Of a DNA stretch of 64,000 nucleotides, positions 2,758 through 18,052 are shown piece after piece. Position numbers and translations under genes: made by a program. Within the stretch, counting starts at the first letter, position 1. Every line of letters starts with the position of its first letter. The DNA comes from Acidobacteriota bacterium (lineage in GTDB: Bacteria; Acidobacteriota; CAIWXX01), in assembly GCA_040755995.1 (NCBI GenBank), contig JBFMAF010000010.1:256001-320000 (forward strand). Direction: 5' to 3'. The notes under the pieces are model-generated. The model was given only the letters and a program-made list of their open reading frames with translations. It was not told the origin of the DNA and did not search any database.

Positions 2758-3119
2758 TGCCGACCCCCGAGTTCCTTCTAGCCTTCATTCTGAAGGCGGG
2801 GCTGGAAGGCCGCGCCGCCTCGGACCATCCGATTCGGACAGCGTGAGCGTTCCCGCGGCCATGCGCGATCGCCCTTCCACGCATGTACCCACGCCTACGG
2901 CGACGTCAACGGCGACGAATTCAGACAGGATCCGTCAACCCCGGTAGTAGTCATCCGGTTTGCAGGGCCCTTCCGACATGGAGGTAGTGCACCGGGCTGC
3001 GTCTCCCTGCGTCTCCTACTTGACACGCAGCCGGTACTTCGGGTGGAGTAGCTCCTCGACGGCTTGATTGAGATGCCGTCGCCGGCTATCGCGGACGCTT
3101 CTTGTTTGAGGATCTACAC

Positions 3120-3752
3120 ATGGGCGATGAGTTCGAGGCTCTCCTGACGGTCGTGCAGGGGCGCAGGAGCATCCGCCGCTTTCGGCAGGACCCGGTGCCG
3201 CCCGCGCTGCTGCGCCGAGTTGTCGACGCGGCACGATGGGCACCGAGCGCCGGGAATCGGCAGTCGTATCGATTTCTGGCGGTGGAAAACCGCGAAATGA
3301 TCGCGGCGATGGGTCGAGTGGTGACAGAGGAGATCGACAAAACGCTGCCCCTCCTTCGACCGGCATCCCGCGAAGAGGTCGAGGAGTACCTTCGGAGCTT
3401 CACGCGATTCGTCTGCGCGCCTCTCGTGCTTGTGCCGATCTACCGCACGGGTGTCAGCCTTATCGACTCCGCGGCAGACGGCGAGGCTCCCGACCTGATA
3501 CGACGAGCCGATGCCGATGCGCTATGCTCCGTGTCGGCTGCTACGATGTGTCTGCTGCTCGCGGCCCACGCGCTCGGCCTGGGAACCTGCTGGATGACGG
3601 GCCCTCTCCTGGCGGAGTCACCCCTCTGCGCACTGCTGGATGTGCCGAAGGGATGGTCGATCTCTGCGCTGATCCCCATGGGTTACGCAGCGGAGAGCCC
3701 GCCTGCACCACCGCGCCGCGACGCAGACAAGCTTCTCAGGTATTTCCCCTGA
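3120..3752 (+). CDS. Nitroreductase family flavoprotein
   Basis: RRSIRRF, APSAGNRQ, LAAHALGLGTCW motifs; GAGGA RBS before ATG 3120. Confidence 0.9.
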   Translation: MGDEFEALLTVVQGRRSIRRFRQDPVPPALLRRVVDAARWAPSAGNRQSYRFLAVENREMIAAMGRVVTEEIDKTLPLLRPASREEVEEYLRSFTRFVCAPLVLVPIYRTGVSLIDSAADGEAPDLIRRADADALCSVSAATMCLLLAAHALGLGTCWMTGPLLAESPLCALLDVPKGWSISALIPMGYAAESPPAPPRRDADKLLRYFP

Positions 3753-3768
3753 TTGCCGGGACCCTGCC

Positions 3769-4233
3769 ATGCGCTATCTCATGATCGACCGGATCGAAGA
3801 ACTCAAGAGGCACTCGTACGCCGTGGGCACGAAGTGCATCACCTTGAGCGACGACTGCTTCGAGCATCACTTCCCCGGGCAGCCCATATACCCCGGGGCG
3901 CTGCTCATCGAGACGATGGCACAGCTCGGCGGCGCGCTGTTGGAGATATCGCTTCGCGATGACATGGGTTATTGTCCGCGCTGCGTCCTGAGCACAGTGA
4001 AGGCCAAGTTCCGCGAGTTCGCCCATCCCGGCGATCTCCTGAGCATCAGGGCGGAGGTCGTCTCGATCCATGACGACTCGGCCATGGTTCGCGGCTCCGT
4101 CATGCGGGCCGATGAAACCATCAGCGAGGCCGAGATGATATTCGTGTTTCTGCGCGTCGAGGACTTGCGTCTCGAATCCTCCCGTCGCGAGCTCATCGAG
4201 CTCCTGACGCGAAAGACAAAGTTCGTCGAATGA
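3769..4233 (+). CDS. fabZ: 3-hydroxyacyl-ACP dehydratase, FabZ family
   Basis: YLMIDRI...FEHHFPGQPIYPGALLIETMAQ hot-dog motif with His/Glu dyad. Confidence 0.85.
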   Translation: MRYLMIDRIEELKRHSYAVGTKCITLSDDCFEHHFPGQPIYPGALLIETMAQLGGALLEISLRDDMGYCPRCVLSTVKAKFREFAHPGDLLSIRAEVVSIHDDSAMVRGSVMRADETISEAEMIFVFLRVEDLRLESSRRELIELLTRKTKFVE

Positions 4234-5390
4234 CGGAAGTCGTCATCAGCGGGATCGGCATGCACGGCGCATTCGGCGATTTCGGTGATACGCTCGATGC
4301 GCTCGCACAGGGGCGCACGGCGGTGACCCGGGTCAGCGTAGACGGCGCGCCAGGCTTTCCCGATGTGCTCGGGGCTCCCGCCGGGCCCTACGACCCGGGC
4401 TGCTACGCGCCCGATCGCAAGCTGGTGAAGTACATGAGCCGAACGGCGCAGCTCGCCGTCCTGGCAAGCGGGAGAGCCATCGAGCGCGCTGGGCTCATGG
4501 ATGATCCCCAAAGCCGCGCAGCCATGGCGCTATTCGTGGCGACCGGCTACATAGCGTTCGATCTGTCGAACGTCGCACGCTCGGCCGAGGCGTCGAAGAC
4601 CGCCGACGGCGCGTTCGATCTGGGTCGCATGGGGGAAGAGGGACTGCGCCTCTGCCATCCTCTCATGCCCTTCAAGATGCTGCTCAACATGCCGCTCGGC
4701 CTCGTCTCGATCGCATTCGGCATCCGTGGTGAGAACTTCGTTCTCTACCCGGGCGCCGATCAGGCCGGGATCGCATTCGAAACGGCCTGGCGCGGGATAC
4801 GGAACGGCCGGTTCGTGCGAGCGCTCGTCGGAGGTTGCGGGCAGGGTCTGAGCCCGATCCCCCTGGCGACGCTCATCCGGCAGGACAGAGTCGCCTGCCC
4901 AGACGACACCGGCGGAGGGAGGTTTCCAATCGCCGATCTCGCAGCCTTCGTCATCCTGGAGTCCGCCCAGGCAGCCGAAGATCGTGGCGCGAGAGCCATC
5001 GCGCGGATCGACTCAGTGCGGCTTGCGCGACCACAACGATCCAGTCAGTCGCTGGCCGCCTTCTTCGGCGGCGATCCCGACGGCCATCGACCCGACTCCG
5101 TCGTCGTGACAGGTTGCATCGACTCCGTTGACCTCCAGGTGCTGACTGACGCGGCGGCCTCGGCGTGGCCCGGCACGCCACCTGCTCTGGCCAGTTTCGA
5201 CGACCGCCTCGGTCACTGCGCGGCCGCCTCGTTGCCTCTCGCTCTGGGGCTCGCAGTCGAGAGCATGAGCCGCGGTTCCGTGCCCGTGCAGCAGGACCTG
5301 AGTGCGCCGCGAGACCTCCTGATCCTCTCGGCGGCCGCGGATGAGGCGCTGTTCTCGTGCCGAGTGCGTTCGGTGGAGGCTCCGCAGTGA
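4230..5390 (+). CDS. Beta-ketoacyl synthase-like protein lacking the catalytic Cys (chain-length-factor/FabF-mut type)
   Basis: KS N-terminal fold (VVISGIG, KYMSRTAQLA, FGIRGENF); YPGADQAG where TAC is expected; no HGTGT; ATGA overlap with fabZ. Confidence 0.75.
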   Translation: MTEVVISGIGMHGAFGDFGDTLDALAQGRTAVTRVSVDGAPGFPDVLGAPAGPYDPGCYAPDRKLVKYMSRTAQLAVLASGRAIERAGLMDDPQSRAAMALFVATGYIAFDLSNVARSAEASKTADGAFDLGRMGEEGLRLCHPLMPFKMLLNMPLGLVSIAFGIRGENFVLYPGADQAGIAFETAWRGIRNGRFVRALVGGCGQGLSPIPLATLIRQDRVACPDDTGGGRFPIADLAAFVILESAQAAEDRGARAIARIDSVRLARPQRSSQSLAAFFGGDPDGHRPDSVVVTGCIDSVDLQVLTDAAASAWPGTPPALASFDDRLGHCAAASLPLALGLAVESMSRGSVPVQQDLSAPRDLLILSAAADEALFSCRVRSVEAPQ

Positions 5391-6667
5391 GGCGCGTTGT
5401 GGTGACCGGTCTTGGTGTAGTGTCCCCCATAGGCATCGGCGTCGATGCTTTCTACGACGGTTTGCGACACGCCCGCTCAGGCATCGGCCTGATCCGTTCG
5501 TTCGATGCCAGCACGTTTCCCACTCGCATCGCGGGCGAGGTGACCGGTGACGTGCCGATTCCGGTCTGGGTCGCCGAGCCGCTTGGTTCGGCGATCAATC
5601 GCGACAGAAAGGCCTGCTTCGCTGTGGCTGCGGCTGACCAGGCTCTGACGGAAGCATTCAGCGGCGGTTCAATCGGATCGTCTTACGCGCCCGATCGGAT
5701 AGGGACCTACCTTGGAGCTGGTCTAGAGATCTTCCACCTTGATGACCTTGCGCCCCACGTGAGAGGAGGTGAGCTCGACGGAGCTTCCTTGTTGGCGTCT
5801 TTGCGAGATGCCCCGGCCTTTTCGAGAATGCAGATACCATCGCACCTTGCATCGTCGGCTGTCGCCGCACATGCTCGAGCTGAAGGGCCGCTGGCAGTGA
5901 ACGTCTCGGCGTGTACTGCTGCGGCCCAGGCGATCGGCGAGGCCTTTCTCGCCGTCCAAGACGACGTTCTCGACGCCGCCATTGTGGGAGGCTACGACTC
6001 CATGGTCAACCCGCTCGGCGTGGGAGGGTTCTGCATGCTCGAGGCCCTGTCACGCGCGAACCACCTTGGCGGCGCTGCGTCGAGACCCTTCGATCTGAAT
6101 CGAGACGGCTTCGTGCTCGGCGAAGGGAGCGCGGTGCTGATACTCGAAGAGCTGAATGCCGCGCACAGACGCAACGCGCCGATCTACGCCGAGCTCCTCG
6201 CGTATGCTTCCTCTCTCGACGCGTACCGTGTATCCGATCCGGATCCGTCACTGCAGGGCGCCGTGTCCGCCATGGCGCAGGCGCTGGCACGGGCCCGGCT
6301 CGAACCGTCGGACGTCGACTACATCAATGCGCATGGCACCGGTACTCGCAAGAACGACCCGATGGAGAGCCGGGCGATTCGGCGAGTGTTCGGCAGCGTA
6401 GCCGGCGAGATCCCGGTCAGCTCGACCAAAAGCCAGGTCGGGCATCTCATCGGCGCGGCCGGCGCGGTCGAACTGATCGCCTGCATCTTTGCGCTGACCG
6501 AGGGGATCGTACCGGCCACGATCAACCTGGACACGCCTGACCCGGAATGCGATCTCGACTATGTGCCGAAAAAGCCTCGCGCCAGGACGGTCAGAACGGC
6601 ACTCTCGAATTCTTTCGGCTTCGGAGGCCAGAATGCCTGCATTGCTATCGGGAGGCTCCGTGGTTGA
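5387..6667 (+). CDS. fabF: Beta-ketoacyl-ACP synthase II (FabF family)
   Basis: VVVTGLG, SACTAA (Cys), NAHGTGT, KSQVGHLIGAAG, SNSFGFGG; GTG start overlaps the previous stop. Confidence 0.92.
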   Translation: MRRVVVTGLGVVSPIGIGVDAFYDGLRHARSGIGLIRSFDASTFPTRIAGEVTGDVPIPVWVAEPLGSAINRDRKACFAVAAADQALTEAFSGGSIGSSYAPDRIGTYLGAGLEIFHLDDLAPHVRGGELDGASLLASLRDAPAFSRMQIPSHLASSAVAAHARAEGPLAVNVSACTAAAQAIGEAFLAVQDDVLDAAIVGGYDSMVNPLGVGGFCMLEALSRANHLGGAASRPFDLNRDGFVLGEGSAVLILEELNAAHRRNAPIYAELLAYASSLDAYRVSDPDPSLQGAVSAMAQALARARLEPSDVDYINAHGTGTRKNDPMESRAIRRVFGSVAGEIPVSSTKSQVGHLIGAAGAVELIACIFALTEGIVPATINLDTPDPECDLDYVPKKPRARTVRTALSNSFGFGGQNACIAIGRLRG

Positions 6668-6722
6668 GAGGGCGGGGCATCACGGCGATCGGGAATGGGT
6701 ACGGGTATGAGGTGAGCTGGAG

Positions 6723-7109
6723 ATGAGTACTGTAGAACGTGTCACGAAGTGTCTGGGTGAGGTGCTGGCTCTCGATCCTAAGACCATCACCGCGGATGCC
6801 CGAGTGATCGACGACCTGGGGGCCGATTCGCTGGATCTCGTGGAGTTGATGTTTCTGCTCGAGCGGGAGTTCTCGATCCGGCTGGACAAGCGGGATCTGA
6901 GCCTGAGCGCTCAGCTCGGGCTGACGGAGCAAGAGACGCACCATGAGGAGGTGCTCACGCCGAAGGCCATGAGCCTGCTGCGCGAACGCTACCCCCTCGC
7001 AGCCGATCGGCTGCGAGACGGCATGACCCGCAAGGATCTGGCCGTGCTCCTTACGGTCGGTGAGATCGCCTGGTCGATCGACCGCAAGCTGGCCAACGCG
7101 GGGGTGTAG
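6723..7109 (+). CDS. Acyl carrier protein with a C-terminal insertion (128 aa)
   Basis: DLGADSLDLVEL phosphopantetheine Ser motif; about 45 extra residues before the TVGEI last helix. Confidence 0.88.
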   Translation: MSTVERVTKCLGEVLALDPKTITADARVIDDLGADSLDLVELMFLLEREFSIRLDKRDLSLSAQLGLTEQETHHEEVLTPKAMSLLRERYPLAADRLRDGMTRKDLAVLLTVGEIAWSIDRKLANAGV

Positions 7110-7143
7110 CCCACGGGTTTCCGACAGAGATGCGAGGAACACA

Positions 7144-7878
7144 ATGCTGGAGGGAATGACCGGTCTGGTCACGGGTGGAACGGGCGCGATCGGCGGAGCC
7201 ATTTGCCGGGCGCTGGGCCGATACGGAATGGACGTGGCATTTGCGTATAGAAGACGCGAGGAGGAGGCGCAGAGGCTCGCGGCCGAGATCGAGGCGCTCG
7301 GTCGGAGGAGCCTCTGCGGCGCAGTAGACGGCCGGGACGGCAGGTCGGTCCATGCGTTCGTCGAGCTGGTCGAGGCGCGATTCGACCACATCGACCTTCT
7401 GGTCAACAATCTCGGTATCACGCAGGTCATGCCCTTCGCGTTGATCGAAGAAGAGGACTGGGACGAGATGATGCAGGTCAACCTGAAGAGTCTCTTCCTG
7501 TTCACCAAGGCCGTGCTGCGCGGCATGGTGCGCCGGCGGCAGGGGGTGATTCTGAACATGGGATCGATCGCCGGCCACAGGATGCTCGATGTGCCGGTAC
7601 ACTACGCCACATCGAAGGCCGCTGTCACGGGATTCACGACTTCGCTGGCGAAGGAGGTTTGCCGCTACGGCATACGCGTGAACGAGATCTGTCCCGGGTT
7701 GGTCGACGCCGGGATAGGCACGAACGTCTCCGAGCGGCAGCTCGCGCTGTACAACCAGTTCTGTTCGCTCGCCAGACCCGGCAAACCGGCGGAAGTCGCC
7801 GAGCTGGTGGCGTTTCTGGCGTCCGATCGCGCTTCCTACATCAACGCTCAGCAGATGGTCGTAGACGGAGGCTTGTGA
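7144..7878 (+). CDS. fabG: 3-oxoacyl-ACP reductase (SDR, FabG family)
   Basis: TGGTGAIG, NNLG, YATSK catalytic motif, VDGG end; GAGGA RBS. Confidence 0.88.
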   Translation: MLEGMTGLVTGGTGAIGGAICRALGRYGMDVAFAYRRREEEAQRLAAEIEALGRRSLCGAVDGRDGRSVHAFVELVEARFDHIDLLVNNLGITQVMPFALIEEEDWDEMMQVNLKSLFLFTKAVLRGMVRRRQGVILNMGSIAGHRMLDVPVHYATSKAAVTGFTTSLAKEVCRYGIRVNEICPGLVDAGIGTNVSERQLALYNQFCSLARPGKPAEVAELVAFLASDRASYINAQQMVVDGGL

Positions 7879-9335
7879 TGAGCTGTGTCGCAGGCGGGGA
7901 GCCGGTCACGTTCCTTTCCGCTTCCCGCGGAATGTGCCGTGCGTGCCGGCGCATGGTAAGGGTCCGCTATGTGGCCAGAGGACACCGTGTGTTTCTGGAG
8001 CGCACATGCCCAGAGCACGGAGTAGGCAGGGCGCTCGTTGCCGAAAGCGTCGGGTGGTACCTGGCCGCGATGCAGCGAGGCTCGTCGAGCCGGCCTCCGC
8101 CGCGCAGCTTCCCCAAGCGCGCCGAATGCCCCCATGACTGCGGGCCGTGCTCCTTTCACGCCCAGGCCTGCCACCTTCCCGTCGTCTCGATAACCAATGC
8201 ATGCGATCTTCGCTGCCCGATCTGCTTCACCTACAATCGGGCCGATCGCACATACTTCATGTCTCGCGACGAGTTCGTCCGCCAGCTGGACTTCGTGATC
8301 GAAGCATCAGGAGGAGTCGACCTCATCAACATCACGGGCGGTGAACCAACGTCACACCCACAACTGTTCGATCTGATCGAGGCTGCCAGGCGGACCGGGA
8401 TCGGGCGCGTCACCCTGAACACGAATGGACTCAGGCTCGCGCGCGAGCTGGACATGGTGGAGCGCCTCGCGGAGCTTGGCGCATACGTAGTGCTGTCGCT
8501 CGACACGCTCGATCCGCGGATCAGCTTTCGAATGCACGGGCGCGACATCGTGGCGGAGAAGCTGCGCGCACTCGAGCTGCTTGACCGGTTCGGCGTGCAG
8601 ACAACGCTGCTCATGGTGCTCGCAGGCGGCGTGAACGAGGGCGAGCTTGGGCGGCTCATCGACATCCTGCTCGAGCGCAGCTTCATCCGGAGTCTTACGA
8701 TTCAGACAATGACGTACACGGGACGGGGTGGCGGCACGTTCCGGCCGAGGGAACACATTCCCGTCGACGGCGTTACTCGCCGCGTCGAGGAAGCCAGCGG
8801 GGGCCGGATTCGACAGAGGGACTTCCTGCCTTTACCCTCGGCGCATCCTCTCTGTTACAGCGTGGCCTATTTCGTCGCGGACGGCCGGGGCGGTGCCCGG
8901 TCGCTTCTCGGCGTGCTCGATCGGAGCCTGCTGGAGCGCCACCTGACCCGCGGATACCTGCTCGATGCGGGAGCCGAGCTCGAGGAGGCGCTGAGGCTGG
9001 CGATCGACCGGGTGTGGAGCGAAGGTGACGATCCGGGCTTGCTCAAGACAATGAAGGATGTGCTCGGCCGCGTGTTTCCTCCAGGAGAGACTCTCGATCG
9101 GCACGAGCGGCAGCGCCGGGCCGAACAGGCGGTCAAGACCGTGTATGTTCACTCCCACATGGACGAGGACACATACGAGATCGGCAGGGCCATGCGGTGC
9201 CCGGATCAGGTGCCCGTCGACGGGGAGAAGCTCATCGGAGCATGCAACTACAACCTGTTCTACAGGCAGAATGACGAACGTTTCTGGGTGGAGGCAGGCG
9301 TCGTGGGAAAGGCGGAGGTCCAAGGGCCGCCGTGA
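7878..9335 (+). CDS. Radical SAM enzyme, tetraether lipid synthase (Tes/GDGT-MAS)-like, paralogue 1
   Basis: CRAC...CPEHG, CPHDCGPCSFH, CDLRCPIC, GGEP, HPLC, HMDEDTYEIGRAMRC, GACNYN; TGATG coupling to fabG. Confidence 0.85.
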   Translation: MSCVAGGEPVTFLSASRGMCRACRRMVRVRYVARGHRVFLERTCPEHGVGRALVAESVGWYLAAMQRGSSSRPPPRSFPKRAECPHDCGPCSFHAQACHLPVVSITNACDLRCPICFTYNRADRTYFMSRDEFVRQLDFVIEASGGVDLINITGGEPTSHPQLFDLIEAARRTGIGRVTLNTNGLRLARELDMVERLAELGAYVVLSLDTLDPRISFRMHGRDIVAEKLRALELLDRFGVQTTLLMVLAGGVNEGELGRLIDILLERSFIRSLTIQTMTYTGRGGGTFRPREHIPVDGVTRRVEEASGGRIRQRDFLPLPSAHPLCYSVAYFVADGRGGARSLLGVLDRSLLERHLTRGYLLDAGAELEEALRLAIDRVWSEGDDPGLLKTMKDVLGRVFPPGETLDRHERQRRAEQAVKTVYVHSHMDEDTYEIGRAMRCPDQVPVDGEKLIGACNYNLFYRQNDERFWVEAGVVGKAEVQGPP

Positions 9336-10756
9336 GCACTCGGGAAATGATGCAGACCGATCTACACGCCGACTCCGCCTCATCCTGCCTCGATGCCACG
9401 CTCGCCCTCTGCAACGCTTGCGGCCGCCTCTGCGACGCACAGATCCGCCTCGATCAGGAACGGGTCGTGCTGGTGAAGTGGTGTCCGGAACACGGCATCA
9501 CCAGGTCTCTGGTCAGCTCCGACAAGAGCTGGTATCTTCGGTCCCTCTCGTACGTGAAGCCCGGGACGCGCCCGCTGGCACGCGCATTCGATGGGTGCAC
9601 TGCGTGCCCGGGCTCCTGCGGTCTCTGTCCCGATCACCAGCAACACACCTGCGTCCCCATTGTCGAGATCACGGGCTCCTGCAATCTGCACTGCCCGATC
9701 TGCCTCGTTTCGGGGAGGGTCGGCAAGGAGCTCACGGTGGAAGAGGTCCGATCAGTCCTCGATCATCTCATCAGATACGAGGGGAAGATCAACATGCTGA
9801 CGCTCAGCGGTGGCGAGCCGACGGTCCACCCTGAGCTCACTGGCATCCTCGATCTTTGCCGGCGGCCGGAGATCGGGCTGGTCTCGGTTTCGACCAACGG
9901 CATCGCGCTCGACCGCGACCCTGACCTTATCCGGAAGATCCGGGACCGCGACGCGGTCATCTCGCTTCAATTTGACGGGTTCGCGGAGGAAGTGTACGGA
10001 TCGTTGCGCGGGAGAGGCGATCTTGCAGCGCTGAAACAACGGGTCGTCGAGAGAATCTTGGACGCCGGTGCACGGTTGTCCCTCACGGTGACCTTGGGGC
10101 GAGGTGTCAACGAAGCGGAGCTGCCGCGTATCCTGGACCTGTTCTTTGCCACCGACCTTGTACTGAGCCTCATGCTGCAGCCTCTCAGCTACGGAGCCTC
10201 CTGCGACGATCCGCTGAACGTCCTGACGATTCCCGATGTAGTCCGCCTCGTGGCCCAGGCATCCAGGGGCAGGCTCACGCGCGATGACTTCACGCCTCTG
10301 CCCTGCTCCCACCCGAGTTGTTTCGCGCTGACCTATCTGTTGAAGCTGGACGGCGGCGCGCTTGTGTCGCTGCCATCCCTCATCGACGTCGAGTCCTACA
10401 TCGATATCATAAAGAACCAGGCGCTCTTCGGCACGGACATGCAGACGCTTGAACGCATCAAGGACGCCCTCTACTCCCTGTGGTCGTCGGACGGCATGCT
10501 GCCGCATCGCGACGCGGTCCTCGGCCGAGTCAAGCGGTTGCTCAATGACATCTCGGCGTTGGGCCGGGCTGGATCTCACCGCGATCTGATCGACCTGGGC
10601 GTGTCGAACGTGAAGTCGATCTTCATCCACCATTTCATGGACCGCGCAACTTTCGATCTGAGCCGCGCGATCAAGTGCTGCAACCACTATGCGATGCCGG
10701 ACGGGAGGCTGTTGCCGGCCTGCGTACGCAACAACCTGACGGCAATTGGATCATGA
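9332..10756 (+). CDS. Radical SAM enzyme, Tes/GDGT-MAS-like, paralogue 2
   Basis: CNAC...CPEHG, CPGSCGLCPDH, CNLHCPIC, SGGEPT, SLQFDG, CSHPSC, HFMDRATFDLSRAIKCCNHY, PDGRLLPAC. Confidence 0.88.
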   Translation: MSTREMMQTDLHADSASSCLDATLALCNACGRLCDAQIRLDQERVVLVKWCPEHGITRSLVSSDKSWYLRSLSYVKPGTRPLARAFDGCTACPGSCGLCPDHQQHTCVPIVEITGSCNLHCPICLVSGRVGKELTVEEVRSVLDHLIRYEGKINMLTLSGGEPTVHPELTGILDLCRRPEIGLVSVSTNGIALDRDPDLIRKIRDRDAVISLQFDGFAEEVYGSLRGRGDLAALKQRVVERILDAGARLSLTVTLGRGVNEAELPRILDLFFATDLVLSLMLQPLSYGASCDDPLNVLTIPDVVRLVAQASRGRLTRDDFTPLPCSHPSCFALTYLLKLDGGALVSLPSLIDVESYIDIIKNQALFGTDMQTLERIKDALYSLWSSDGMLPHRDAVLGRVKRLLNDISALGRAGSHRDLIDLGVSNVKSIFIHHFMDRATFDLSRAIKCCNHYAMPDGRLLPACVRNNLTAIGS

Positions 10757-11799
10757 TCCGGTCGATCTGCAACTGCCTGGCGCACTTGGTTGCCGGACGG
10801 CCCGACGGCTGGTATCCGCTTCTCGGCGTCTACTACCTCACCTACGCCTGCGACATGAGGTGCACTTACTGCAGTGACGGCAGCGGCATCCCGTACTACC
10901 GCCTGCCGGATGAGCCCGTCTCGGGTGCAGGAGCAACCGAGATCATGCGGACCATGCGACGGTGGACGGACTACCTGGTGATCACAGGAGGCGAGCCGCT
11001 ACGGCACCCCGATTTCGTCGACGTGCTATCCGGCCTTCCCGCCCTTCGCTTCGACGGCGTCGTTCTAACGACCAACGGTTGCGACGTGGCCCCGTATCTT
11101 CAACTGATCAACGCCTCCGTGCGATACCTGGTCTTCTCCCTGGACACTCTGAACGAGGATCGCGCCGGGCACATCTACGGGCGGCGCCACGTGCTTGACC
11201 GAATACTCAGCAACATCGAATCTGCCGCAAGCGTCCCGGAGCGGCGGTACGAGATCATCATCTCCGCGGTCGCAACACCGGACAATCTCGAGGACCTGCC
11301 GGAGCTCTACCAGTACTGCCGCCGGCGAGGCTTCCGCTTCGCCCTGTGCCCGCAGCTGCTGGGGGTCAAGCCGCATCCGGCTCTGCGTGATAACCCCGGA
11401 TACCGGAGAGTCTTCGATATGCTCATCTCCGAGAAGCGGCGCGGCGGCCGAATCCATGGTAGTGTTCCATACCTGGAGCATATGCGCGACCTGCAACAAT
11501 TCTCATGCCGCCCAAGCACCGTTCTCGCCGTGTCGCCCGCCGGTAACGTTTTCTATCCGTGCCTGGAGATCGGCCACGCGGCCGGCTCCCTCGCCGATGA
11601 GCCCGACATCCACACCATTCGCCGGCAGGCACGAGAGAGGTTCGGCGAGGAACCACGGTGCGACAATCGCTGCCATTCGGCGTGCGCTCTCGGTTTCTCC
11701 TTGCTCCTGAACCGCCCTTGGTCGATTGTCCACGAGGCCGTTCTCGCCGCGAAGTCCACGTTGCGGCGCACGCTGAGGGGATACTCCAGTGTCTGCTAA
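10753..11799 (+). CDS. Radical SAM protein with C-terminal SPASM/twitch-like Cys cluster
   Basis: CDMRCTYC, TGGEP, TTNG; C-terminal CRP...YPC...CDNRCHSAC; ATGA coupling. Confidence 0.85.
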   Translation: MIRSICNCLAHLVAGRPDGWYPLLGVYYLTYACDMRCTYCSDGSGIPYYRLPDEPVSGAGATEIMRTMRRWTDYLVITGGEPLRHPDFVDVLSGLPALRFDGVVLTTNGCDVAPYLQLINASVRYLVFSLDTLNEDRAGHIYGRRHVLDRILSNIESAASVPERRYEIIISAVATPDNLEDLPELYQYCRRRGFRFALCPQLLGVKPHPALRDNPGYRRVFDMLISEKRRGGRIHGSVPYLEHMRDLQQFSCRPSTVLAVSPAGNVFYPCLEIGHAAGSLADEPDIHTIRRQARERFGEEPRCDNRCHSACALGFSLLLNRPWSIVHEAVLAAKSTLRRTLRGYSSVC

Positions 11800-13084
11800 G
11801 AAACGCTCCGTTGCCGCACTTGTCTGCACGGCCTGGCTTGGCGCCGGCGCGTCCATCGCAACTTCTTCCGCTCTGGCATGGATCGTGGGCGTCGAGGAGA
11901 TCTCCCCATCCGAGCTCGACCGGCTTCTCTCGTCGTCAAACCCGCCCGTCGTCGTCGACGTCACGACACGGGAAGAGTTCCTCCGTGAACATCTGCGCGG
12001 ATCCGTCAACGCCCCGCTGGGCGAGCTCGACTCCCAGCGAGGCGCCTTCGAGGCGTATCAGAACACGACCGTGGTGACTGTGTGCCAGGGAGGCGTGCGT
12101 TCGGCTCTGGCAGCGTCGAAGCTGGAAGGGCAGGGTCTGAAGCACGTGCTCAGCCTTTCGGGAGGCAAGCTCGCCTGGTCCAGTCAGGGGCTGCCACTCG
12201 AGTCCGGCGGGCCGCCCCCCTTCGCGGCAAGTGCACGCAGAGGCCCCTCAATCACGCTGTCGTTGGTGGAACAGACCGTGTCGGTGATTTCGGCGTTCGC
12301 CGTCAAGCCGGCCTACATGCTGCTCAGTCTGATCGCCGTGCTGCTAATGCACCGGCGCAGATCGCGAGACATGCTCTTGATTCGTGCGGGCCTTGCCGTG
12401 TTCTTCGCCGGCGAGCTCTTCTGCGCAATCAACTATCTGTGCACCGGCGGCGCCAACTTCTGGCTCGACATGCTCCACGGCATCGGCATGGTGGCGATGG
12501 GAGTGCTGGTTCCATGGGGAGCGTTCATATTGGTCGACGAGCGCGTGATCGGGCTGACGCAGCCCGACGCCGGCTGCTCGTTGAGGCGCTTCTGCGCGCG
12601 TTGCTGGAAGCAGGTTGAGGCTCCGTGTGCCGCGCACCGCATCTTCAAGCTCGTTGCGCCGGCCATGGCAGTCGTCTCGCTGATGCCGTGGACTGCGCCG
12701 ATCCGCGAGCTCAGCGAGGTCGGGACCGTCTTCGGGACGCCGGTGGCCTACTCGTACTCGCTGCCGCTGCAGCTCGCCGACTTCCGATTCTATCCGGCTG
12801 CAGGCGCCCTTTGCCTGGCAGTCGCTTCAGCAATGCTTTGCGGCGGCAGACGATCCATGAGATCTGCTCAGCCCTTCTTCTTCGCAGGCTTCGGGTTCAT
12901 GGCGTTTTCTCTGTTCCGTTTCCTACTGCTCAGCGCGTACCGCGAGACCCCCGTCTGGTCCGACTTCTGGGAGGAGCTCACGGAGCTCCTTTTCACGGTG
13001 ATCTCCATCGCCTTGCTCTGGATCTATCGGGAGCAGCTCGGCCTAGGCAGGGCAGCCCGTGTGACACCGTCCGCCGAGGAGTGA
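11789..13084 (+). CDS. Rhodanese-domain integral membrane protein
   Basis: Signal-like N-terminus, VVDV..EEF..HLRGS, active loop CQGGVRS, LSGG..AW; then about 8 hydrophobic segments with a CxxxxxCxxC...C loop. Confidence 0.8.
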   Translation: MSAKKRSVAALVCTAWLGAGASIATSSALAWIVGVEEISPSELDRLLSSSNPPVVVDVTTREEFLREHLRGSVNAPLGELDSQRGAFEAYQNTTVVTVCQGGVRSALAASKLEGQGLKHVLSLSGGKLAWSSQGLPLESGGPPPFAASARRGPSITLSLVEQTVSVISAFAVKPAYMLLSLIAVLLMHRRRSRDMLLIRAGLAVFFAGELFCAINYLCTGGANFWLDMLHGIGMVAMGVLVPWGAFILVDERVIGLTQPDAGCSLRRFCARCWKQVEAPCAAHRIFKLVAPAMAVVSLMPWTAPIRELSEVGTVFGTPVAYSYSLPLQLADFRFYPAAGALCLAVASAMLCGGRRSMRSAQPFFFAGFGFMAFSLFRFLLLSAYRETPVWSDFWEELTELLFTVISIALLWIYREQLGLGRAARVTPSAEE

Positions 13085-14118
13085 CGGGAGTGGGTGCCCC
13101 GGATCTGATCAGGCTTCTGACGTTCTTTCGTCGGCTGAATCTGCCTCGCTGGCCGCGCCGGGCCGCTGCACGCATTGTCGAAGAGCACGATCTCTCATCG
13201 CCGTCGGGCGCGCTCTACGACCACTACCTGCCGCGCAGCACGGTGCGATCCCGGATCGTGGCCCTTCACGGCGTCACGCGCAAGGGCAAGGACGACCCGA
13301 GGCTCGTCCGCTTCAGCCGCTCCCTCGCCTCCGCCGGGGTCGAGTGCTTTGTGCCGACACTCAGGGGCCTTGCCGAATTCGACTGGCGCGGCTCCGATAT
13401 CGACGACCTCGTGGCGCTTGTCCTTGGTGTCGCGGGCGGGGCGCGGTCGCTCGGGGTCGTCGGCTTCAGTTTCGGAGGCAGTTACGCATTGGTCGCCGCT
13501 GCTCGTTCGGAGATCAGCCAGACTCTCCGGTTCGTCCTCGCGGTAGGCGCATACCATTCGCTCGTCGATCTTTACGAACGCGTCGCGGCGGTTGGTGCAG
13601 ATGGAAGATTCGCCGGCAGTCGCGGAGACATGGATGACTGGATATACCTGCATCTCGTCGCGGCTCGGCGCCTGGCGCCCGAGCTGCGGCTCGACCCAGC
13701 AACACTCGTCGAGATGGATTCGCTGCTTGACCGCTACTGCCACTCCAGCTCGCTACCCGAGAAGACCTCCTTCTACGAGCGTCATCTCGAAGGCCGGAAT
13801 CTCTTGCAGCAGGATTGGGCGATGGCCGATCGCGCGGTGCTCGAACGCCTTTCGCCGGCGACCCGGCTGCGCAGCGTGGCATGTCCGGTTCGCCTGCTGC
13901 ACGATCCTGAGGACGCGATCGTTCCGGCCGATCACGCCCACAAGATCGCGGCCGAGCTCGGCCGGTGGGACCGCTCATGCAGGCTTGTCGTCACACCGTT
14001 GCTCCACCACGTCTCCCTGTCGAGCGCCCTGATGACGGCCGATTGGGTACGTATCGCGGCACTGTTTCTGCCGGTGATGGCAATGCGGCCCGGGAAGGAC
14101 GAAAGTGGGGCGGACTGA
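13081..14118 (+). CDS. Alpha/beta hydrolase (putative thioesterase/esterase)
   Basis: LHG, GFSFGG nucleophile, EDAIVP Asp, LLHH His; GTGA coupling. Confidence 0.8.
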   Translation: MTGVGAPDLIRLLTFFRRLNLPRWPRRAAARIVEEHDLSSPSGALYDHYLPRSTVRSRIVALHGVTRKGKDDPRLVRFSRSLASAGVECFVPTLRGLAEFDWRGSDIDDLVALVLGVAGGARSLGVVGFSFGGSYALVAAARSEISQTLRFVLAVGAYHSLVDLYERVAAVGADGRFAGSRGDMDDWIYLHLVAARRLAPELRLDPATLVEMDSLLDRYCHSSSLPEKTSFYERHLEGRNLLQQDWAMADRAVLERLSPATRLRSVACPVRLLHDPEDAIVPADHAHKIAAELGRWDRSCRLVVTPLLHHVSLSSALMTADWVRIAALFLPVMAMRPGKDESGAD

Positions 14119-15154
14119 GCTCGGCGAGCGCCTCAAGCGCGTGCGCTATGCCGCGAGCTTCCTGCGGAGGGGCATGGTACACGTCAATCTACAGGTGCTC
14201 TACCAGTGCAACTTCCGTTGCCGGATCTGCGACTTCTGGAAGCGGCGCTATCAGGAGATGCCGCAACTCGGCGCCGATCAGGCGCGCCTCATCGCGGACA
14301 AGCTCGACGAGTTGGGGCCGCAGATCGTGTCGATCGGCGGGGGCGAGCCGCTCATGCACCCGGAGATAGTCACGATTGCGAGGATACTGTCGCGGCGCCA
14401 TCTGCCTGTCATGATTACGAACGGATGGTTCGTCACGCCGGAGCTCGCCCGGAGCCTCTTCGAGGCAGGGATGTACGAGGTAAGCGTGTCGGTAGACTAC
14501 GCTGAGGCCGGCAGACATGACGCTCAGCGTGGGTGCAAGGGCGCATACGACGGCGCTATCGCCGCACTGGAGATTCTGCAAGCCAACCGGACACGGCCGT
14601 ACCAGAGGGTACACATGATCTCGGTGGCCATGGCAGACAACCTCGATGAAATCGAGCCCCTGATCCGGCTTTGCGGGAAGATGGGCATCACCTACCTCGT
14701 GACCCTGTACTCTGACGGCCGAGGGCAGAGGGACCTTTCCTGTGTTGCAGGAGACGCGAGTGCGCGCTTGCTGGCCCTCAAGGAACGCTACCCTGGATTC
14801 GTATCGCTGCGAGGCTATCTGGGGCGATTCAATGGTGCCGCTCCGGCCGCCCGACACGACCGTTGCTTCGCAGGCCTCAATCTGATGAACATAGACTGTC
14901 GGGGAAGCGTCTCCCTCTGCATCGACCGCGCGGATGAAGTCGTCGGCAACCTGCTCGAGGAGACCACGGAGGCGATCCGCCGCAAGCTGCTCGCGAGATA
15001 TCGCGACAACCAATGCCGCTCATGCTGGACGTCTTGCCGTGGTTCGATCGAGACCCTGATGTACGGCGGAGACCGGTTGGCGAACCTGCGTGACCTCTAC
15101 GGAATGACGAAGCCGGTCCCACTAGCCCCTGAGGCCGTGAGGCGACGGGGTTGA
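14105..15154 (+). CDS. Radical SAM protein with C-terminal SPASM/twitch-like domain
   Basis: CNFRCRIC, GGGEP, ITNG; CFAG...IDCRGSVSLC...GNL...CRSCWTSC. Confidence 0.85.
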   Translation: MGRTELGERLKRVRYAASFLRRGMVHVNLQVLYQCNFRCRICDFWKRRYQEMPQLGADQARLIADKLDELGPQIVSIGGGEPLMHPEIVTIARILSRRHLPVMITNGWFVTPELARSLFEAGMYEVSVSVDYAEAGRHDAQRGCKGAYDGAIAALEILQANRTRPYQRVHMISVAMADNLDEIEPLIRLCGKMGITYLVTLYSDGRGQRDLSCVAGDASARLLALKERYPGFVSLRGYLGRFNGAAPAARHDRCFAGLNLMNIDCRGSVSLCIDRADEVVGNLLEETTEAIRRKLLARYRDNQCRSCWTSCRGSIETLMYGGDRLANLRDLYGMTKPVPLAPEAVRRRG

Positions 15155-15421
15155 CGAACCGCGCTGGCCTCGACCGGCGCGGCGTCGCACATCGCCCGCA
15201 GGGCGCGCGCGTGTCGTCCTGAAGGGACACCCTGTCACAGAACACAGACACCGAGACAGCGCCCACTGACGCGGTGCGTCGTCTGTTGGCAGGGTTTCCA
15301 GGCCACTCTGAACCCGCGCGATTCTGGCACGTATATTGAATGTGGCAGCCTGGTCCTGGCTGTCCCGGGGACGCGAGATGGTCCTGGAGGTTGTTCCGGA
15401 GTAGCACATGAGAGGAGACGT

Positions 15422-17215
15422 ATGAGAAGTCGACACATCGCCCGCCTGACCACACAAGTCTTTGCAATCCTGTTCATAGCAGCCCCGGTTCACGCGGCGA
15501 CGCCCTTCGCACGCGCCGCCGGTGAGCTCGATTTCGTCCGGCGCTTGCGGGACGCGACGCCCCCGGCCGCGCGCCCTGCCCTGACGAATCTGGTCGAGAT
15601 GGTGCGGATGGATGACGGTGTGCGGTTGCACACGTCGGTCTATCTCGCCTCGCAGTCGGGGCGGTACCCAGCTATCCTGGTCCGGACGCCGTACAACGAC
15701 GCCACCGACGGCCTTGATGACTACGGCTACTCCGGCATCGCCGACTACTACTGCCCGCGCGGGTACGCCGTGGTGATCCAGACAATCCGCGGCAAGTACG
15801 CATCGGAGGGGACGTACCGTCTCATGTCGCGCGGCGAGATCGACGACGGCTACGCCGCAATTGAGTGGATCTCACGACAGGCCTGGTGCGACGGCAACGT
15901 GGCTGTCATGGGCGTGTCGCACGACGGGTTCGATGCACTTGCCGCCGGCATCCGCAACCCCAGCGGTCTCAAGCTGGTCATATCCGGCGGCGGCCCCGCG
16001 GACTTGCGGACCGACGCATTCATGCAGAAGGGGACCCTCGGCACGAGCCTGCTCGACTACATCGACTTCATGTTCACCGAGACCGGCCAGCCGTATGACG
16101 ATCTCTTCTTCCGCCTCATGGAGACGCTGGGGCTGCCGGAGCCGCGGCTTCTCGCCTACGACACGCTTGTGAGCGGCAAGGAGCTGCCGGCGTGGGACGA
16201 GCACATCAAGGCCATGAGCCGTGTCAACAGTGACTACTGGCAGAAGCGCCGGATTCGCGACCGGCTGCACGAGTGCAAGCTGCCGATAGTCCAGTTCGCG
16301 GGACTCTACAGCGACGGCGATATGCCCGATGTCCTGCGCAATTTCGAGTACCTCGAGGAGAGAGGCATCCAGGGCCGCTTGATCCTCGGCTGGTGGGCGC
16401 ACGGGTCCTCCGGCCCCTACGGCGATGTCGAGGGGTACACTCCACCCGATGTGCTCAAGCGATACAATGCTCTGCTCGACTACTACCTCAAAGGACTCAG
16501 CAGCCCGATTCTCAACGAGAAGCGGATCCAGGTCTTTGCGGCGGGCGAGGGCAAGTTCGTGCCATCCAACACGTGGCCTCAGCTTCCTGGATACACATCG
16601 CGCGAGTTCTACTTCGCGCGTGGCTCGACGCAGGCCGGCAAGCTGCTGAGCGCGCCACGATCGGAAAGCAAACCCAATGTGTCGTACGCTTATGACCCTA
16701 AGGTGCTTCCGACGATTCTCTACGATCCGGGGCCGATCCGAAACCACACCGACCAGCTGGCGTTTCTGAGTGATCCCATGCCCGCAGACACGCCGGTATG
16801 CGGCAAGGCGAGCCTGACGCTGTACGTGTCGAGCACGGCCAGGGACACCGACTTCTATGCGGCCGCATTCGTGCGCCAGACTGACGGGACGGATCGTGAG
16901 CTCGGGCCGGGACCGGGCCTTCTCCAGGCCCGCCAGCGGGACGGCGATTACGCGCGGCCGAAGATGCTCGTGCCGGGCCAGGTGTACGCCGTGACGATCG
17001 AGCCGCCGTTCATCTCTGGCATCGTCAAGAAAGGCGAACGCCTCGGGGTCGTGGTCTTCAGCAACGCCTTTCCGGTGGTCATCCGAAACGCCAACAGCGG
17101 AAAGCCGATAGGCTCCGACAAGGCCTTCATCACCGCGACCCAGAAATTCTACCTCGGGAAGCTCTACCCGTCGAAGCTGACCCTGAGCTGCCGGTCCCCA
17201 TCGACCGGCGGGTAG
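15422..17215 (+). CDS. Secreted CocE/NonD family hydrolase (peptidase S15-like)
   Basis: MDDGVRL, RTPY, RGKYASEG, WCDGNV, GVSHDG nucleophile, GWWAHG, C-terminal SSTARDTDF domain; signal peptide; AGGAG RBS. Confidence 0.88.
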   Translation: MRSRHIARLTTQVFAILFIAAPVHAATPFARAAGELDFVRRLRDATPPAARPALTNLVEMVRMDDGVRLHTSVYLASQSGRYPAILVRTPYNDATDGLDDYGYSGIADYYCPRGYAVVIQTIRGKYASEGTYRLMSRGEIDDGYAAIEWISRQAWCDGNVAVMGVSHDGFDALAAGIRNPSGLKLVISGGGPADLRTDAFMQKGTLGTSLLDYIDFMFTETGQPYDDLFFRLMETLGLPEPRLLAYDTLVSGKELPAWDEHIKAMSRVNSDYWQKRRIRDRLHECKLPIVQFAGLYSDGDMPDVLRNFEYLEERGIQGRLILGWWAHGSSGPYGDVEGYTPPDVLKRYNALLDYYLKGLSSPILNEKRIQVFAAGEGKFVPSNTWPQLPGYTSREFYFARGSTQAGKLLSAPRSESKPNVSYAYDPKVLPTILYDPGPIRNHTDQLAFLSDPMPADTPVCGKASLTLYVSSTARDTDFYAAAFVRQTDGTDRELGPGPGLLQARQRDGDYARPKMLVPGQVYAVTIEPPFISGIVKKGERLGVVVFSNAFPVVIRNANSGKPIGSDKAFITATQKFYLGKLYPSKLTLSCRSPSTGG

Positions 17216-17390
17216 GCAGCTGCCGAGGCACATTGTGCTCAGCGGCTTGGTGACTCCCGCGCGATCGGCCGGAGGCGCACGCGCGGGGGAGGCCGCCGGC
17301 CACTGAGCCCGAATGTCTCCGAGCCGCCTTCACAACGACGCCCCGAATGCAGCGATGATGCCGGTGAATTATGGAGACGGCCCTTGAATG

Positions 17391-17422
17391 ATTCTTGACT
17401 AAATAGTATACTTAATTACCAT
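17391..17422 (+). promoter_or_regulatory. Sigma70-like promoter overlapped by an AT-rich Rrf2/IscR-type operator
   Basis: TTGACT (17395-17400), 16 bp, TACCAT (17417-17422); ATTCTTGACTAAATAGTATACTTAAT is strikingly AT-rich and resembles IscR-type sites. Confidence 0.55.
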
Positions 17423-17439
17423 GACTAGTGAGGTGGGTG

Positions 17440-17910
17440 ATGAGATTCACGGCACAGGAAGAGTATGGGCTGAGATGCGCCCTGCAAATGGCCAAGAAAG
17501 ACGGGGAGAAGCCGCTCACGATCGCGGACCTGGCGAAGCTGGAGGGGCTGACGAGTGCCTACGTCGCCAAGCTGATGCGTGTGATGAGGAAGGGCGAGGT
17601 GGTGGTGAGCGTGCGCGGACAGTCTGGTGGCTACCGTCTGGCGCGCCCGCCGGCACTCATGAGTGTTGCCGATGTGTTGATGGTGCTCGACCGGAGGCTC
17701 TATCAACCATCCTACTGCCGGCAGTTCGCGGGATCGTCCCCGTCCTGCGTCCACATCCGCGACTGCACGATACGGGCCCTCTGGCGGAAGCTCCAGACCA
17801 CCCTCTGGCACACGCTCGAACAGATCACTCTCGCGGATCTCGTGCACGGAGGCGAGAGCGAGATGCTCGTAAGCCTGAGGACGGCGCTCCCCGTGGCGCG
17901 CTGCTCATAG
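17440..17910 (+). CDS. Rrf2 family transcriptional regulator (IscR-like, three Cys)
   Basis: EEYGLRC, SVRGQSGGYRLARP, C-x8-C-x5-C then LWRKL...LEQITLADL. Confidence 0.9.
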   Translation: MRFTAQEEYGLRCALQMAKKDGEKPLTIADLAKLEGLTSAYVAKLMRVMRKGEVVVSVRGQSGGYRLARPPALMSVADVLMVLDRRLYQPSYCRQFAGSSPSCVHIRDCTIRALWRKLQTTLWHTLEQITLADLVHGGESEMLVSLRTALPVARCS

Positions 17911-18052
17911 ACGGCTTCGAGCGCGAGGCTGCGGTGCACGTGCGCGTTGCGCGGGCGGGCCCAGCCGATGCTCTCACACCGACCACACCGGCCGCTCCGT
18001 CAGCACCACAACCCACCCAGAACGGACTGCGGACCGAGTGAGGAGATAAGCC

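Follow-up and report, generated by a model that had tools for sequence, protein, structure and literature searches.

A twelve-gene acidobacterial operon combines two paralogous Tes-superfamily radical SAM enzymes with a FAS-II-like gene set and a long acyl carrier protein

[quoted passage not shown] Here we describe a twelve-gene operon of an Acidobacteriota bacterium (GenBank assembly GCA_040755995.1) that encodes two enzymes of this superfamily, RS1 and RS2, together with proteins resembling a type II fatty acid synthase (FAS). It lies in a stretch of 64,000 nucleotides (nt) of contig JBFMAF010000010.1 (positions 256,001 to 320,000), which we call the window and to which coordinates refer unless another contig or locus is named. 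The closest characterised protein is Tes, and the closest cluster-level analogue is anammox Cluster I. Clusters that join a FAS-II-like core to radical SAM tailoring are of a known kind; new are the paired Tes-superfamily branch, the type of acyl carrier protein (ACP) and three variants in accessory genes. Our preferred reading, to which we assign a probability of about 0.5, is that the operon is one variant (type A below) of a widespread, horizontally mobile family of biosynthetic gene clusters, and that it encodes a specialised pathway radically functionalising a self-made chain, most likely by C–C bonding.

The four-domain fold and four metal sites of Tes are common to RS1 and RS2. Tes acts alone on membrane diethers, whereas RS1 and RS2 are paired in an operon with a FAS-like set and its ACP. 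Anammox Cluster I (KustE3603-3608) shares with the operon a dedicated ACP, a FabZ variant, a ketosynthase (KS) with a dead KS partner, and radical SAM chemistry. According to its descriptions (10.64898/2026.05.19.726425, PMC10139942), the KS and its dead partner behave as a heterodimer of KS and chain-length factor (CLF), and the link of the cluster to a ladderane product is unproven. The window operon likewise pairs, at the sequence level, a KS that has the catalytic triad with a partner that lacks all three residues. It encodes a nitroreductase and four radical SAM enzymes, of which two belong to the Tes superfamily, whereas Cluster I has a cobalamin-dependent radical SAM enzyme, a phytoene dehydrogenase homologue and no nitroreductase. 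A Pfam scan of the twelve operon proteins found no B12-binding domain (PF02310) and no amine-oxidase/phytoene-desaturase domain, and an identity of the operon with the anammox ladderane cluster is thereby ruled out. The anammox parallel drawn in a first-pass annotation of this DNA thus stands as an analogy, not as a relationship, the class of radical SAM enzyme and the phytoene dehydrogenase being different. Mss of Thermotoga and Thermoanaerobacter offers a further likeness, being described as a radical SAM enzyme that joins unactivated carbons of fatty-acid tails in anoxia; unlike the operon, it is described as acting alone on ordinary membrane fatty acids, with no dedicated FAS, and it is taken to be distinct from Tes because Mss-bearing genomes lack a Tes homologue (PMC13159169). 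The radical SAM (seleno)protein TrsS (NF045646), the best-scoring NCBIfam model for both RS1 and RS2, which fall below its cut-off, is listed as a selenoprotein in PMC13188914.

The FAS-like core of the operon resembles highly reducing type II polyketide synthases (PKSs). Like the PKSs of aryl polyenes, ishigamide and cispentacin (Amc), it has a KS with a complete triad, a CLF-like partner, a stand-alone ACP, a short-chain dehydrogenase/reductase (SDR) and a hot-dog dehydratase; the Amc models were not passed (AmcF 198 against 325 bits, AmcE 36 against 140, AmcB 21 against 80). We know of no polyene-type type II PKS with a Tes-superfamily radical SAM enzyme or with such a long ACP. Neither the gene set nor its product was found described in the full-text literature covered, which includes few subscription journals and no supplements, and within that coverage the earlier statement that no characterised cluster has this gene set is borne out. 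A review on radical SAM enzymes that modify lipids, dated 2026, names no such system in its section headings (PMC13459092). Such loci may well be labelled 'ladderane' or T2PKS-like by antiSMASH; one region with an antiSMASH 'ladderane' call, MXAN_6377-6414 of M. xanthus, is of unknown product (PMC4902038).

The listing of open reading frames (ORFs), together with Pfam and NCBIfam scans, places the following genes between 3102/3120 and 15154, all on the + strand, and agrees with the first-pass annotation in content and order:

3120 (ATG) or 3102 (TTG) to 3752, + strand: NTR, nitroreductase-fold flavoenzyme (PF00881, E 1.7e-30)
3769 to 4233, + strand: FabZ-like 3-hydroxyacyl-ACP dehydratase (PF07977, E 1.4e-16)
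4230 to 5390, + strand: Cys-less KS, CLF-like (only the N-terminal domain PF00109, E 2.9e-8)
5387 to 6667, + strand: FabF-like KS (NF005589, 401 bits against a cut-off of 387)
6723 to 7109, + strand: long ACP, 128 amino acids (aa) (PF00550, E 3.4e-10, residues 5-59 only)
7144 to 7878, + strand: FabG-like SDR ketoreductase (PF13561 and PF00106, E about 1e-54)
7878 to 9335, + strand: RS1, Tes-superfamily radical SAM enzyme (PF23545 and PF04055)
9332 to 10756, + strand: RS2, Tes-superfamily radical SAM enzyme, paralogue of RS1 (PF23545 and PF04055)
10753 to 11799, + strand: RS3, accessory radical SAM enzyme near the PTO1314/HpnH (DUF3463) families (PF04055, E 3e-14)
11789 to 13084, + strand: rhodanese with a six-helix membrane domain (PF00581, E 5.7e-14)
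13081 to 14118, + strand: alpha/beta hydrolase, candidate thioesterase/esterase (PF12697, E 4.7e-6)
14105 to 15154, + strand: RS4, accessory radical SAM enzyme with SPASM domain (PF04055, E 2.2e-17; PF13186, 24 against 21.5 bits)

Eight of the eleven junctions are overlaps of stop and start codons, at 4230, 5387, 7878, 9332, 10753, 11789, 13081 and 14105, each of which had been named before and is confirmed by the reading of stops and starts; the remaining three gaps measure 16, 55 and about 35 nt. The start of NTR is ambiguous between the TTG at 3102 and the ATG at 3120, and that of FabG is most likely the ATG at 7144 rather than the longest-ORF start at 7060.

KS, CLF, FabG, FabZ and the long ACP form a set like that of a type II FAS or a highly reducing type II PKS, with a KS, a CLF-like partner, an ACP bearing the DSL motif, a ketoreductase and a dehydratase all present. 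The triad of the FabF-like KS is complete (C176, H316, H353); the protein passes the cut-off of the FabF subfamily NF005589 but not that of the equivalog TIGR03150 (421 against 494 bits). In the CLF the aligned active-site stretch reads YPGADQ, and the Cys and both catalytic His are gone. The Gln near the lost Cys, whose register differs by one to two residues between HMMER and MAFFT alignments, presumably recalls the CLFs of type II PKSs. Related loci were taken as the best 80 of at least 481 relatives obtained by scanning species-representative genomes with an RS2 alignment; in them, KS-family ORFs with a length of 300 aa or more number 77, of which 46 have the C-H-H triad, and the Gln is conserved in 25 of 30 Cys-less ones.

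The dehydratase has the motifs HxFPGxPxxPG and LIE and reaches 88 bits against the 155-bit cut-off of TIGR01750; its best PDB matches are ordinary FabZ proteins (E 9e-19), with anammox amxFabZ weaker (E 1.9e-12). FabG likewise reaches 212 bits against the 298 of TIGR01830. FabZ, FabG and ACP each score under the housekeeping equivalog cut-offs, and side by side on contig 49 of the host lie its canonical FabF, which scores 663 bits, and its AcpP, which scores 114; the operon therefore holds a private FAS-like set. Pfam and NCBIfam scans of the operon proteins found no homologue of FabD or FabH and no match to the FabI, FabK, FabL or FabV families. The nitroreductase falls below every NCBIfam equivalog cut-off, with BluB and the C-terminal domain of FbiB as best weak matches, and in the PDB it is related to nitroreductases of a generic kind, to the FbiB C-terminal domain and to albonoursin synthase. 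Proteins of this fold include both a reductase, since the FbiB C-terminal domain reduces dehydro-F420, and a dehydrogenase, albonoursin synthase.

RS1 and RS2 each combine an HMPTM/Tes N-terminal zinc-ribbon domain with a radical SAM domain. Neither passes the Tes model NF045702, whose cut-off is 450 bits: the protein scan gives 178 bits for RS1 and 225 for RS2, and the genome scan about 170 bits for each. The TrsS model is also not passed (206 and 236 bits against 490), although residues 23-471 of RS2 align to positions 3-433 of its 441, and no gene of the host genome reaches that cut-off in the genome scan. The only strong PDB relative of either protein is the M. jannaschii GDGT-MAS 7TOL (E 3e-59 for RS2, E 7e-40 for RS1), and the match of RS2 is full-length, covering chain residues 23-495. 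The predicted structure of RS2, with a mean predicted local distance difference test (pLDDT) of 87.2, superposes on 7TOM with a template-modelling (TM) score of 0.81 over 492 columns, the next fold, MoaA, reaching 0.39.

Based on the ligand motifs of Tes as defined by Lloyd et al. (PMC9433317) and in a review (PMC13459092), both proteins keep the rubredoxin-like CX2C...CX2H, the N-terminal CX3CX2C with its His, the radical SAM CX3CX2C and the C-terminal cluster's three Cys. None of these motifs varies in the 31-row alignments made for RS1 and for RS2. The deviations lie elsewhere. Met439, the labile ligand of the cluster [4Fe-4S]C, is reported to be fully conserved across 1000 archaeal Tes homologues (PMC9433317) and is retained in nine bacterial Tes rows, whereas the position is His in RS1 (H425) and in RS2 (H433), invariantly in each family. 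At the position of Tes Tyr459, Phe and Leu variants of which remain active (PMC13459092), RS2 has an invariant Tyr (Y453) and RS1 an invariant Val (V445). The Tes insert of about 20 residues before the HPxC motif is missing from both. RS1 and RS2 are thus members of the Tes/GDGT-MAS superfamily but not Tes, an identity ruled out by the failed NF045702 cut-off and by the His at the Met439 position. Their likeness to Tes, as first noted, holds for superfamily and fold, and orthology falls on the same two observations.

A phylogeny of RS1 and RS2 with Tes, which had been suggested beforehand, was built with FastTree from 149 Tes-superfamily rows and rooted on ten true-Tes-like rows, four rows having been excluded as truncated, fused or spurious. 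Both proteins fall in clades separate from true Tes: the true-Tes outgroup has a support of 100, the RS1 clade (57 rows) of 99 and the RS2 clade (78 rows) of 92. Each of the two clades splits in parallel into a sub-clade of cluster types A and B and a sub-clade of type C (types defined below), which implies that RS1 and RS2 diverged before the cluster diversified and have travelled together since. They are, then, anciently diverged, co-diverging paralogues.

Two further groups appear in the same tree. At L025 (6805) and L047 (7747), where L numbers denote loci, an extra Tes-superfamily paralogue stands beside the RS1/RS2 pair and forms a clade of its own (support 100). A third Tes-like subfamily (locus L011, which is contig 58 of genome G040) is basal to RS1 and RS2; it is a single gene without FAS neighbours in genomes G040, G336 and G306 and, judged by its band of 313-430 bits, occurs in about 20 of 400 sampled genomes of the host phylum. 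The match in G040 (E 9e-70) was accordingly set aside as a member of this subfamily.

Complex prediction supports an RS1–RS2 heterodimer. The modelled pair reached an ipSAE of 0.83 in three of three runs, against 0.60 for the best of three controls; of solved complexes, 116 of 157 attain the mark used for such scores, and of mismatched pairs, 2 of 215, counts that apply here only roughly because our own alignments were used. The runs share at least 86% of contacts, and the partner pLDDT is at least 82. The predicted interface involves the N-terminal rubredoxin-like and N-cluster domains and residues ~434-448 of each chain. Since 7TOL and 7TOM contain one chain each, no solved dimer of the Tes family could have been memorised by the predictor.

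The long ACP is a hallmark of the family and a new ACP type. Its phosphopantetheine site is Ser36 in the DSL motif. Among 44 ACP ORFs (43 related loci and the window), 40 are 120-144 aa long, one has 92 aa and three are longer, probably as an artefact of ORF extension. The AlphaFold2 (AF2) model, built from a 35-row alignment (pLDDT 88.5), has extra helices at residues 61-109, a folded, helical insertion of some 45-50 residues predicted between helix III and helix IV. Ordinary ACPs superpose on the model over about 58 residues, and its best match among solved structures, the specialised ACP RPA2022, has a TMq of only 0.58. The match to amxACP in sequence is weak (E 4.6e-5).

Co-conservation had been set beforehand as the point on which the idea of a dedicated pathway would fall; the core gene set recurs in other genomes. 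Metagenomic protein collections hold more than 120 homologue clusters of RS2 at 53-67% identity. Genes of the related loci were labelled by tblastn synteny tables, and many of the 80 contigs are short; the 43 loci that extend 8 kb or more upstream and 9 kb or more downstream are treated as full-flank. In high-GC loci, greedy ORF calls fuse some genes or place them on the wrong strand, and we relied there on the tblastn labels and on low-GC loci. Over all 80 loci RS1 was found in 61, FabG in 60, KS in 47, FabZ in 46, ACP in 42 and NTR in 38. Eight genes make up the core, namely RS1, RS2, FabG, FabZ, KS, CLF, NTR and the 120-144 aa ACP, and at least six of them are present in 33 of the 43 full-flank loci and all eight in 16, counts in which the divergent CLF is under-detected by tblastn at the thresholds used. 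KS, ACP, FabZ and FabG occur together in 29 of these 43 loci, NTR in 31 and a second SDR (PF13561) in 26. RS1 and RS2 travel together, and FabG adjoins the pair in all three types of cluster.

These types differ in gene order and accessory genes. Type A (the window, L013-L018, L022 and L023) runs NTR, FabZ, CLF, KS, (second SDR), ACP, FabG, RS1, RS2, with a tail in which RS3, the rhodanese–membrane protein, the hydrolase and RS4 are variably present; all twelve genes of the window recur in the same order only in L013, which adds an SDR. Type B (for example L019, L020, L071, L075, L082, L086 and L087) has a hexapeptide-repeat transferase between RS1 and RS2 and adds a fusion of cysteine desulfurase and rhodanese within the operon, a membrane methyltransferase of the ICMT/PEMT family, RS3 and RS4. 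Type C, exemplified by Sorangium, other Polyangiaceae, Planctomycetota and Pyrinomonadaceae, starts with RS1, RS2 and FabG, followed by another FabG-like SDR, often by a class III aminotransferase (present in 25 of the 80 related loci) and RS4, and then by FabZ, CLF, KS, SDR, NTR and ACP. Two loci from archaeal records, L081 ('uncultured archaeon') and L090 (a Thermoplasmatota metagenome-assembled genome, MAG), have FabZ, a short CLF-like ORF, KS, SDR, NTR, a long ACP and FabG with a single RS2-like Tes-superfamily gene of 549-557 aa and no RS1; they are either an artefact of binning or a version of the pathway with one such enzyme.

Judged by record titles, carriers span about 17 bacterial phylum-level labels, including five complete cultured Sorangium genomes, plus the two archaeal MAG records. 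The labels are Myxococcota, Elusimicrobiota, Bacillota, Thermodesulfobacteriota, Acidobacteriota, Rokubacteria, Planctomycetota, Pseudomonadota, Vulcanimicrobiota, Verrucomicrobiota, Spirochaetota, Riflebacteria, Muiribacteriota, Actinomycetota, KSB1, Fibrobacterota and a Kapaibacterium, and some of the MAG carriers could be binning errors. The nearest relatives of the window cluster are in Myxococcota MAGs (63-64% identity). Among 40 relatives of the host, both genomes of the same family included, none has an RS2-type gene with FAS neighbours, G025 giving weak matches only; this tally and those of 400 and 200 phylum genomes include G025. Only 3 of 400 genomes of the phylum reach at least 595 bits with the RS2 profile: G096, with a near-complete type-B-like cluster, and G083 and G143, in which an RS2-type gene lies beside accessory genes at contig ends. 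True Tes is far commoner, 24 of 200 other phylum genomes matching at E<=1e-80. This scattered distribution suggests that in the host phylum the cluster is a sporadically acquired accessory metabolism.

Of the accessory enzymes, RS3 has a weak DUF3463 match and no PDB relative at E<=1e-5; its Atlas neighbours are clusters of unnamed radical SAM proteins and the PTO1314 and HpnH clusters, and homologues, confined to types A and B, occur in 10 of the 80 related loci. Those of RS4, whose best PDB match is BlsE (E 3e-11), occur in 32 of 80 and in all three types. The hydrolase has a GFSFGG nucleophile elbow and homologues in 10 of 80. The rhodanese, with an intact active-site loop (CQGGVRS), is probably periplasmic, because the N-terminus resembles a signal peptide (KKR, a hydrophobic stretch, ALA). 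Residues 140-431 of the same protein form a six-helix membrane domain with a CX6CX2CX8C loop and belong to no named family; rhodanese-linked and stand-alone versions of this domain are found in unnamed clusters from Thermodesulfobacteriota, Planctomycetota, Chloroflexota and Myxococcota, and homologues of the whole protein in L013, L014, L016 and G096.

Together these features suggest the following pathway. The KS/CLF pair would prime by decarboxylating malonyl-ACP, as the anammox KS pair does (10.64898/2026.05.19.726425), and would elongate the chain on the long ACP. NTR could supply the missing enoyl reduction, or else a desaturation. The RS1–RS2 heterodimer would then act on the chain, each enzyme abstracting a hydrogen from an unactivated C–H and parking the radical on its C-terminal auxiliary cluster, as proposed for Tes, whose mechanism passes through a C–S(cluster) intermediate (PMC13459092, PMC9433317). 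The likeliest outcome would be one or more new C–C bonds, by ring closure in the chain or by coupling of two chains; RS3 and RS4 may perform further radical tailoring, and the alpha/beta hydrolase may release the product. C–C bonding is favoured because it is the sole chemistry documented for the superfamily and because sulfur genes are not universal in the clusters. We infer a specialised product, either a lipid or a metabolite derived from fatty acids, and not the bulk membrane lipid of the host. In outline, the general idea put forward when the operon was first noticed, that it has its own ACP-bound chain and modifies this by radical chemistry, is supported.

Several observations weigh against this reading: (i) RS1 and RS2 deviate at positions that are fully conserved in archaeal Tes, and with the exchange of Met439 for His, of Tyr459 for Val in RS1 and the loss of the insert, their chemistry may differ from that of Tes. 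(ii) The C–C outcome is extrapolated from one characterised member, whose substrates are membrane diethers rather than acyl-ACP. (iii) The tethering of the RS1/RS2 substrate to the ACP is deduced from gene neighbourhood only. (iv) One of the complex controls is high (0.60), and a score above the mark is no proof of binding. (v) Support values in the tree are of the SH-like kind only, long branches and heterogeneous composition are flagged, and the support of 92 for RS2 monophyly is below the starred level. (vi) ORF starts in the related loci were set by a heuristic. (vii) Sulfur-trafficking genes, present in 19 of 80 related loci, within the operon in type B and once in the window, point to sulfur incorporation over C–C bonding.

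The last of these observations leads to the best of the competing explanations, which we nevertheless regard as unlikely: RS1/RS2 or RS3/RS4 would stop at the C–S(cluster) stage and release a thiolated chain, in a pathway like that of LipA or BioB, giving a mercapto- or dithiolane-type fatty acid, and the rhodanese or the desulfurase–rhodanese fusion would deliver sulfur or rebuild the cluster. Tes itself yields a substrate–sulfur adduct when SAM is limiting (PMC13459092), and the exchange of Met for His in both RS1 and RS2 affects the non-Cys ligand of the C-terminal cluster. Type B operons contain PF00266–rhodanese fusions (L020, 12406-13875; L019, 12041-13546; L071, 1830-3347). Such a fusion occurs in 14 of the 80 related loci, and counting either sulfur gene gives 11 of the 43 full-flank loci; a rhodanese is carried by the window, where its active-site loop is intact, and by L013, L014 and L016. 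Type C, however, Sorangium included, shows no sulfur gene within the fetched flanks, save a weak rhodanese match in L070. Sulfur genes accompany RS3 in 8 of the 11 RS3-bearing loci (window included), and therefore may serve RS3, or the general Fe–S supply of three to five radical SAM enzymes. The probably periplasmic location of the window rhodanese would be hard to square with the feeding of cytoplasmic radical SAM enzymes, and thiol release as a product has no known case among Tes-superfamily members. Sulfuration, one of the options raised by the first-pass annotation, is thus favoured by the sulfur genes of related clusters and disfavoured by type C clusters that do without them.

It is improbable, in our judgement, that the operon makes a membrane-spanning lipid of the host, such as iso-diabolic acid or a brGDGT precursor, with RS1/RS2 coupling the tails of two chains. 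The metal sites and Tes fold of the two enzymes fit such a role, and type C clusters occur in MAGs of Pyrinomonadaceae and other Acidobacteriota (L024, L045, L050 and L056). In PMC13159169 the acidobacterial iso-diabolic acid synthase is described as unidentified, mss as absent from acidobacteria and Tes homologues as present in only 3 of 14 iso-diabolic acid producers. According to the same source, though, iso-diabolic acid was reported in almost all species of subdivisions (SD) 1, 3, 4 and 6, a near-universal occurrence unlike that of the RS2-type gene, whose absence from both same-family genomes and whose 3 of 400 in the phylum argue against a core membrane-spanning lipid. The operon proteins, moreover, include no acyltransferase or glycerol-lipid gene product, and Sorangium, Azoarcus-type Betaproteobacteria, Fibrobacteria and others carry this core too. 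We know of no report of membrane-spanning lipids in these groups.

The host, in addition, has other candidates for that role. A true Tes equivalog lies on contig 31 at 37682-39148 (loci L012 and L093), with 563 bits against the cut-off of 450. Its nearest named relatives are proteins of Terriglobia, Acidobacteriia and Bryobacteraceae, of which several are annotated as Tes; they mark the host as probably acidobacterial, which counts in favour of the membrane-lipid reading. The neighbours of this Tes gene are an HlyD-like protein, a phosphonate-binding protein, a Ser/Thr kinase–PAP2 fusion and a DegT aminotransferase, with no lipid genes among them. On the minus strand of contig 33 (about 3300-22900; L116) there is a second FAS-like and radical SAM cluster with a FabA/FabZ-like dehydratase, a KS, a partner with only the KS N-terminal domain, a FabH-like KAS III, an SDR and three B12-binding radical SAM enzymes of 663, 540 and 438 aa. 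It also holds a Tes-like paralogue of 524 aa, which scores 341 bits with the Tes hidden Markov model (HMM) against the cut-off of 450 and has no relative closer than true Tes (<=42% identity) in 200 phylum genomes. With its FabH and its B12 radical SAM enzymes, this cluster seems no less relevant than that of the window to membrane-spanning lipids of a branched or methylated kind. The membrane-spanning lipid first proposed for the operon is therefore weakened by the sporadic distribution, by the true Tes on contig 31 and by the contig-33 cluster.

Least probable of all is a ladderane-like or polyene-derived carbocycle, in which the KS/CLF, ketoreductase and dehydratase would make a polyunsaturated chain for the radical SAM enzymes to cyclise: the lack of an enoyl reductase family gene (Pfam and NCBIfam scans), a KS/CLF, ketoreductase, dehydratase and ACP make-up that fits polyene-type type II PKSs and the logic of anammox Cluster I, and up to four radical SAM enzymes available for cyclisation would suit it, but the core NTR or the second SDR could be an enoyl reductase, the phytoene dehydrogenase homologue and B12-binding radical SAM enzyme of the anammox cluster are both missing, FabZ and ACP of the window resemble their ordinary counterparts more than they do amxFabZ and amxACP, and saturated sp3 carbons are the targets of Tes chemistry.

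As to the borders of the operon, the upstream neighbours are BNR/sortilin-repeat proteins and the downstream neighbour, after a gap of 267 nt from 15154, is an S15 hydrolase, all unrelated to the cluster. The flanking genes of the closest relative, L013, differ from these, so that the flanks are not conserved, and we therefore take the unit to be 3102-15154. A promoter and terminator scan of 2500-15600 gave counts no higher than expected from shuffled sequence, and no public sequencing run is listed for 3102-13000. Three kb downstream of the operon, at 18053-19144, the window encodes a carrier ATPase for Fe–S clusters of the Mrp/NBP35/ApbC type (PF10609 and PF01883), probably a housekeeping protein. 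It is followed at 19507-22797 by a PdxR-like GntR–aminotransferase regulator, PdxS (SOR/SNZ) and PdxT (SNO), an ordinary pyridoxal phosphate synthase.

Returning to the specialised pathway that we prefer, the earlier description of the locus as Tes-like and as making a membrane-spanning lipid should be narrowed to that of a distinct pair of Tes-superfamily enzymes whose pathway is specialised and widely transferred. More tentatively, and at somewhat less than even odds, RS1–RS2 may be the first branch of the Tes superfamily to work as a heterodimer and to depend on a carrier protein, making C–C (or C–S) bonds at unactivated carbons of an ACP-tethered chain. The related clusters of about 17 bacterial phylum-level labels and some archaeal MAGs would then yield new carbocyclic, macrocyclic or cross-linked fatty-acid metabolites, in three chemically distinct sub-classes (thio-, amino- and plain). 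The pair defines a second large branch of the superfamily, in which two co-evolving paralogues are tied to a private FAS-like machine and a new type of ACP. Lipid proxy work is affected as well: genes of the RS1/RS2 type have a secondary-metabolite context and would pass loose BLAST thresholds, so that homology matches to bacterial 'Tes' cannot be read as tetraether capacity. The system offers a testable case of radical C–H functionalisation of carrier-bound alkyl chains and, since cultured Sorangium carries the cluster, the question is open to experiment now.

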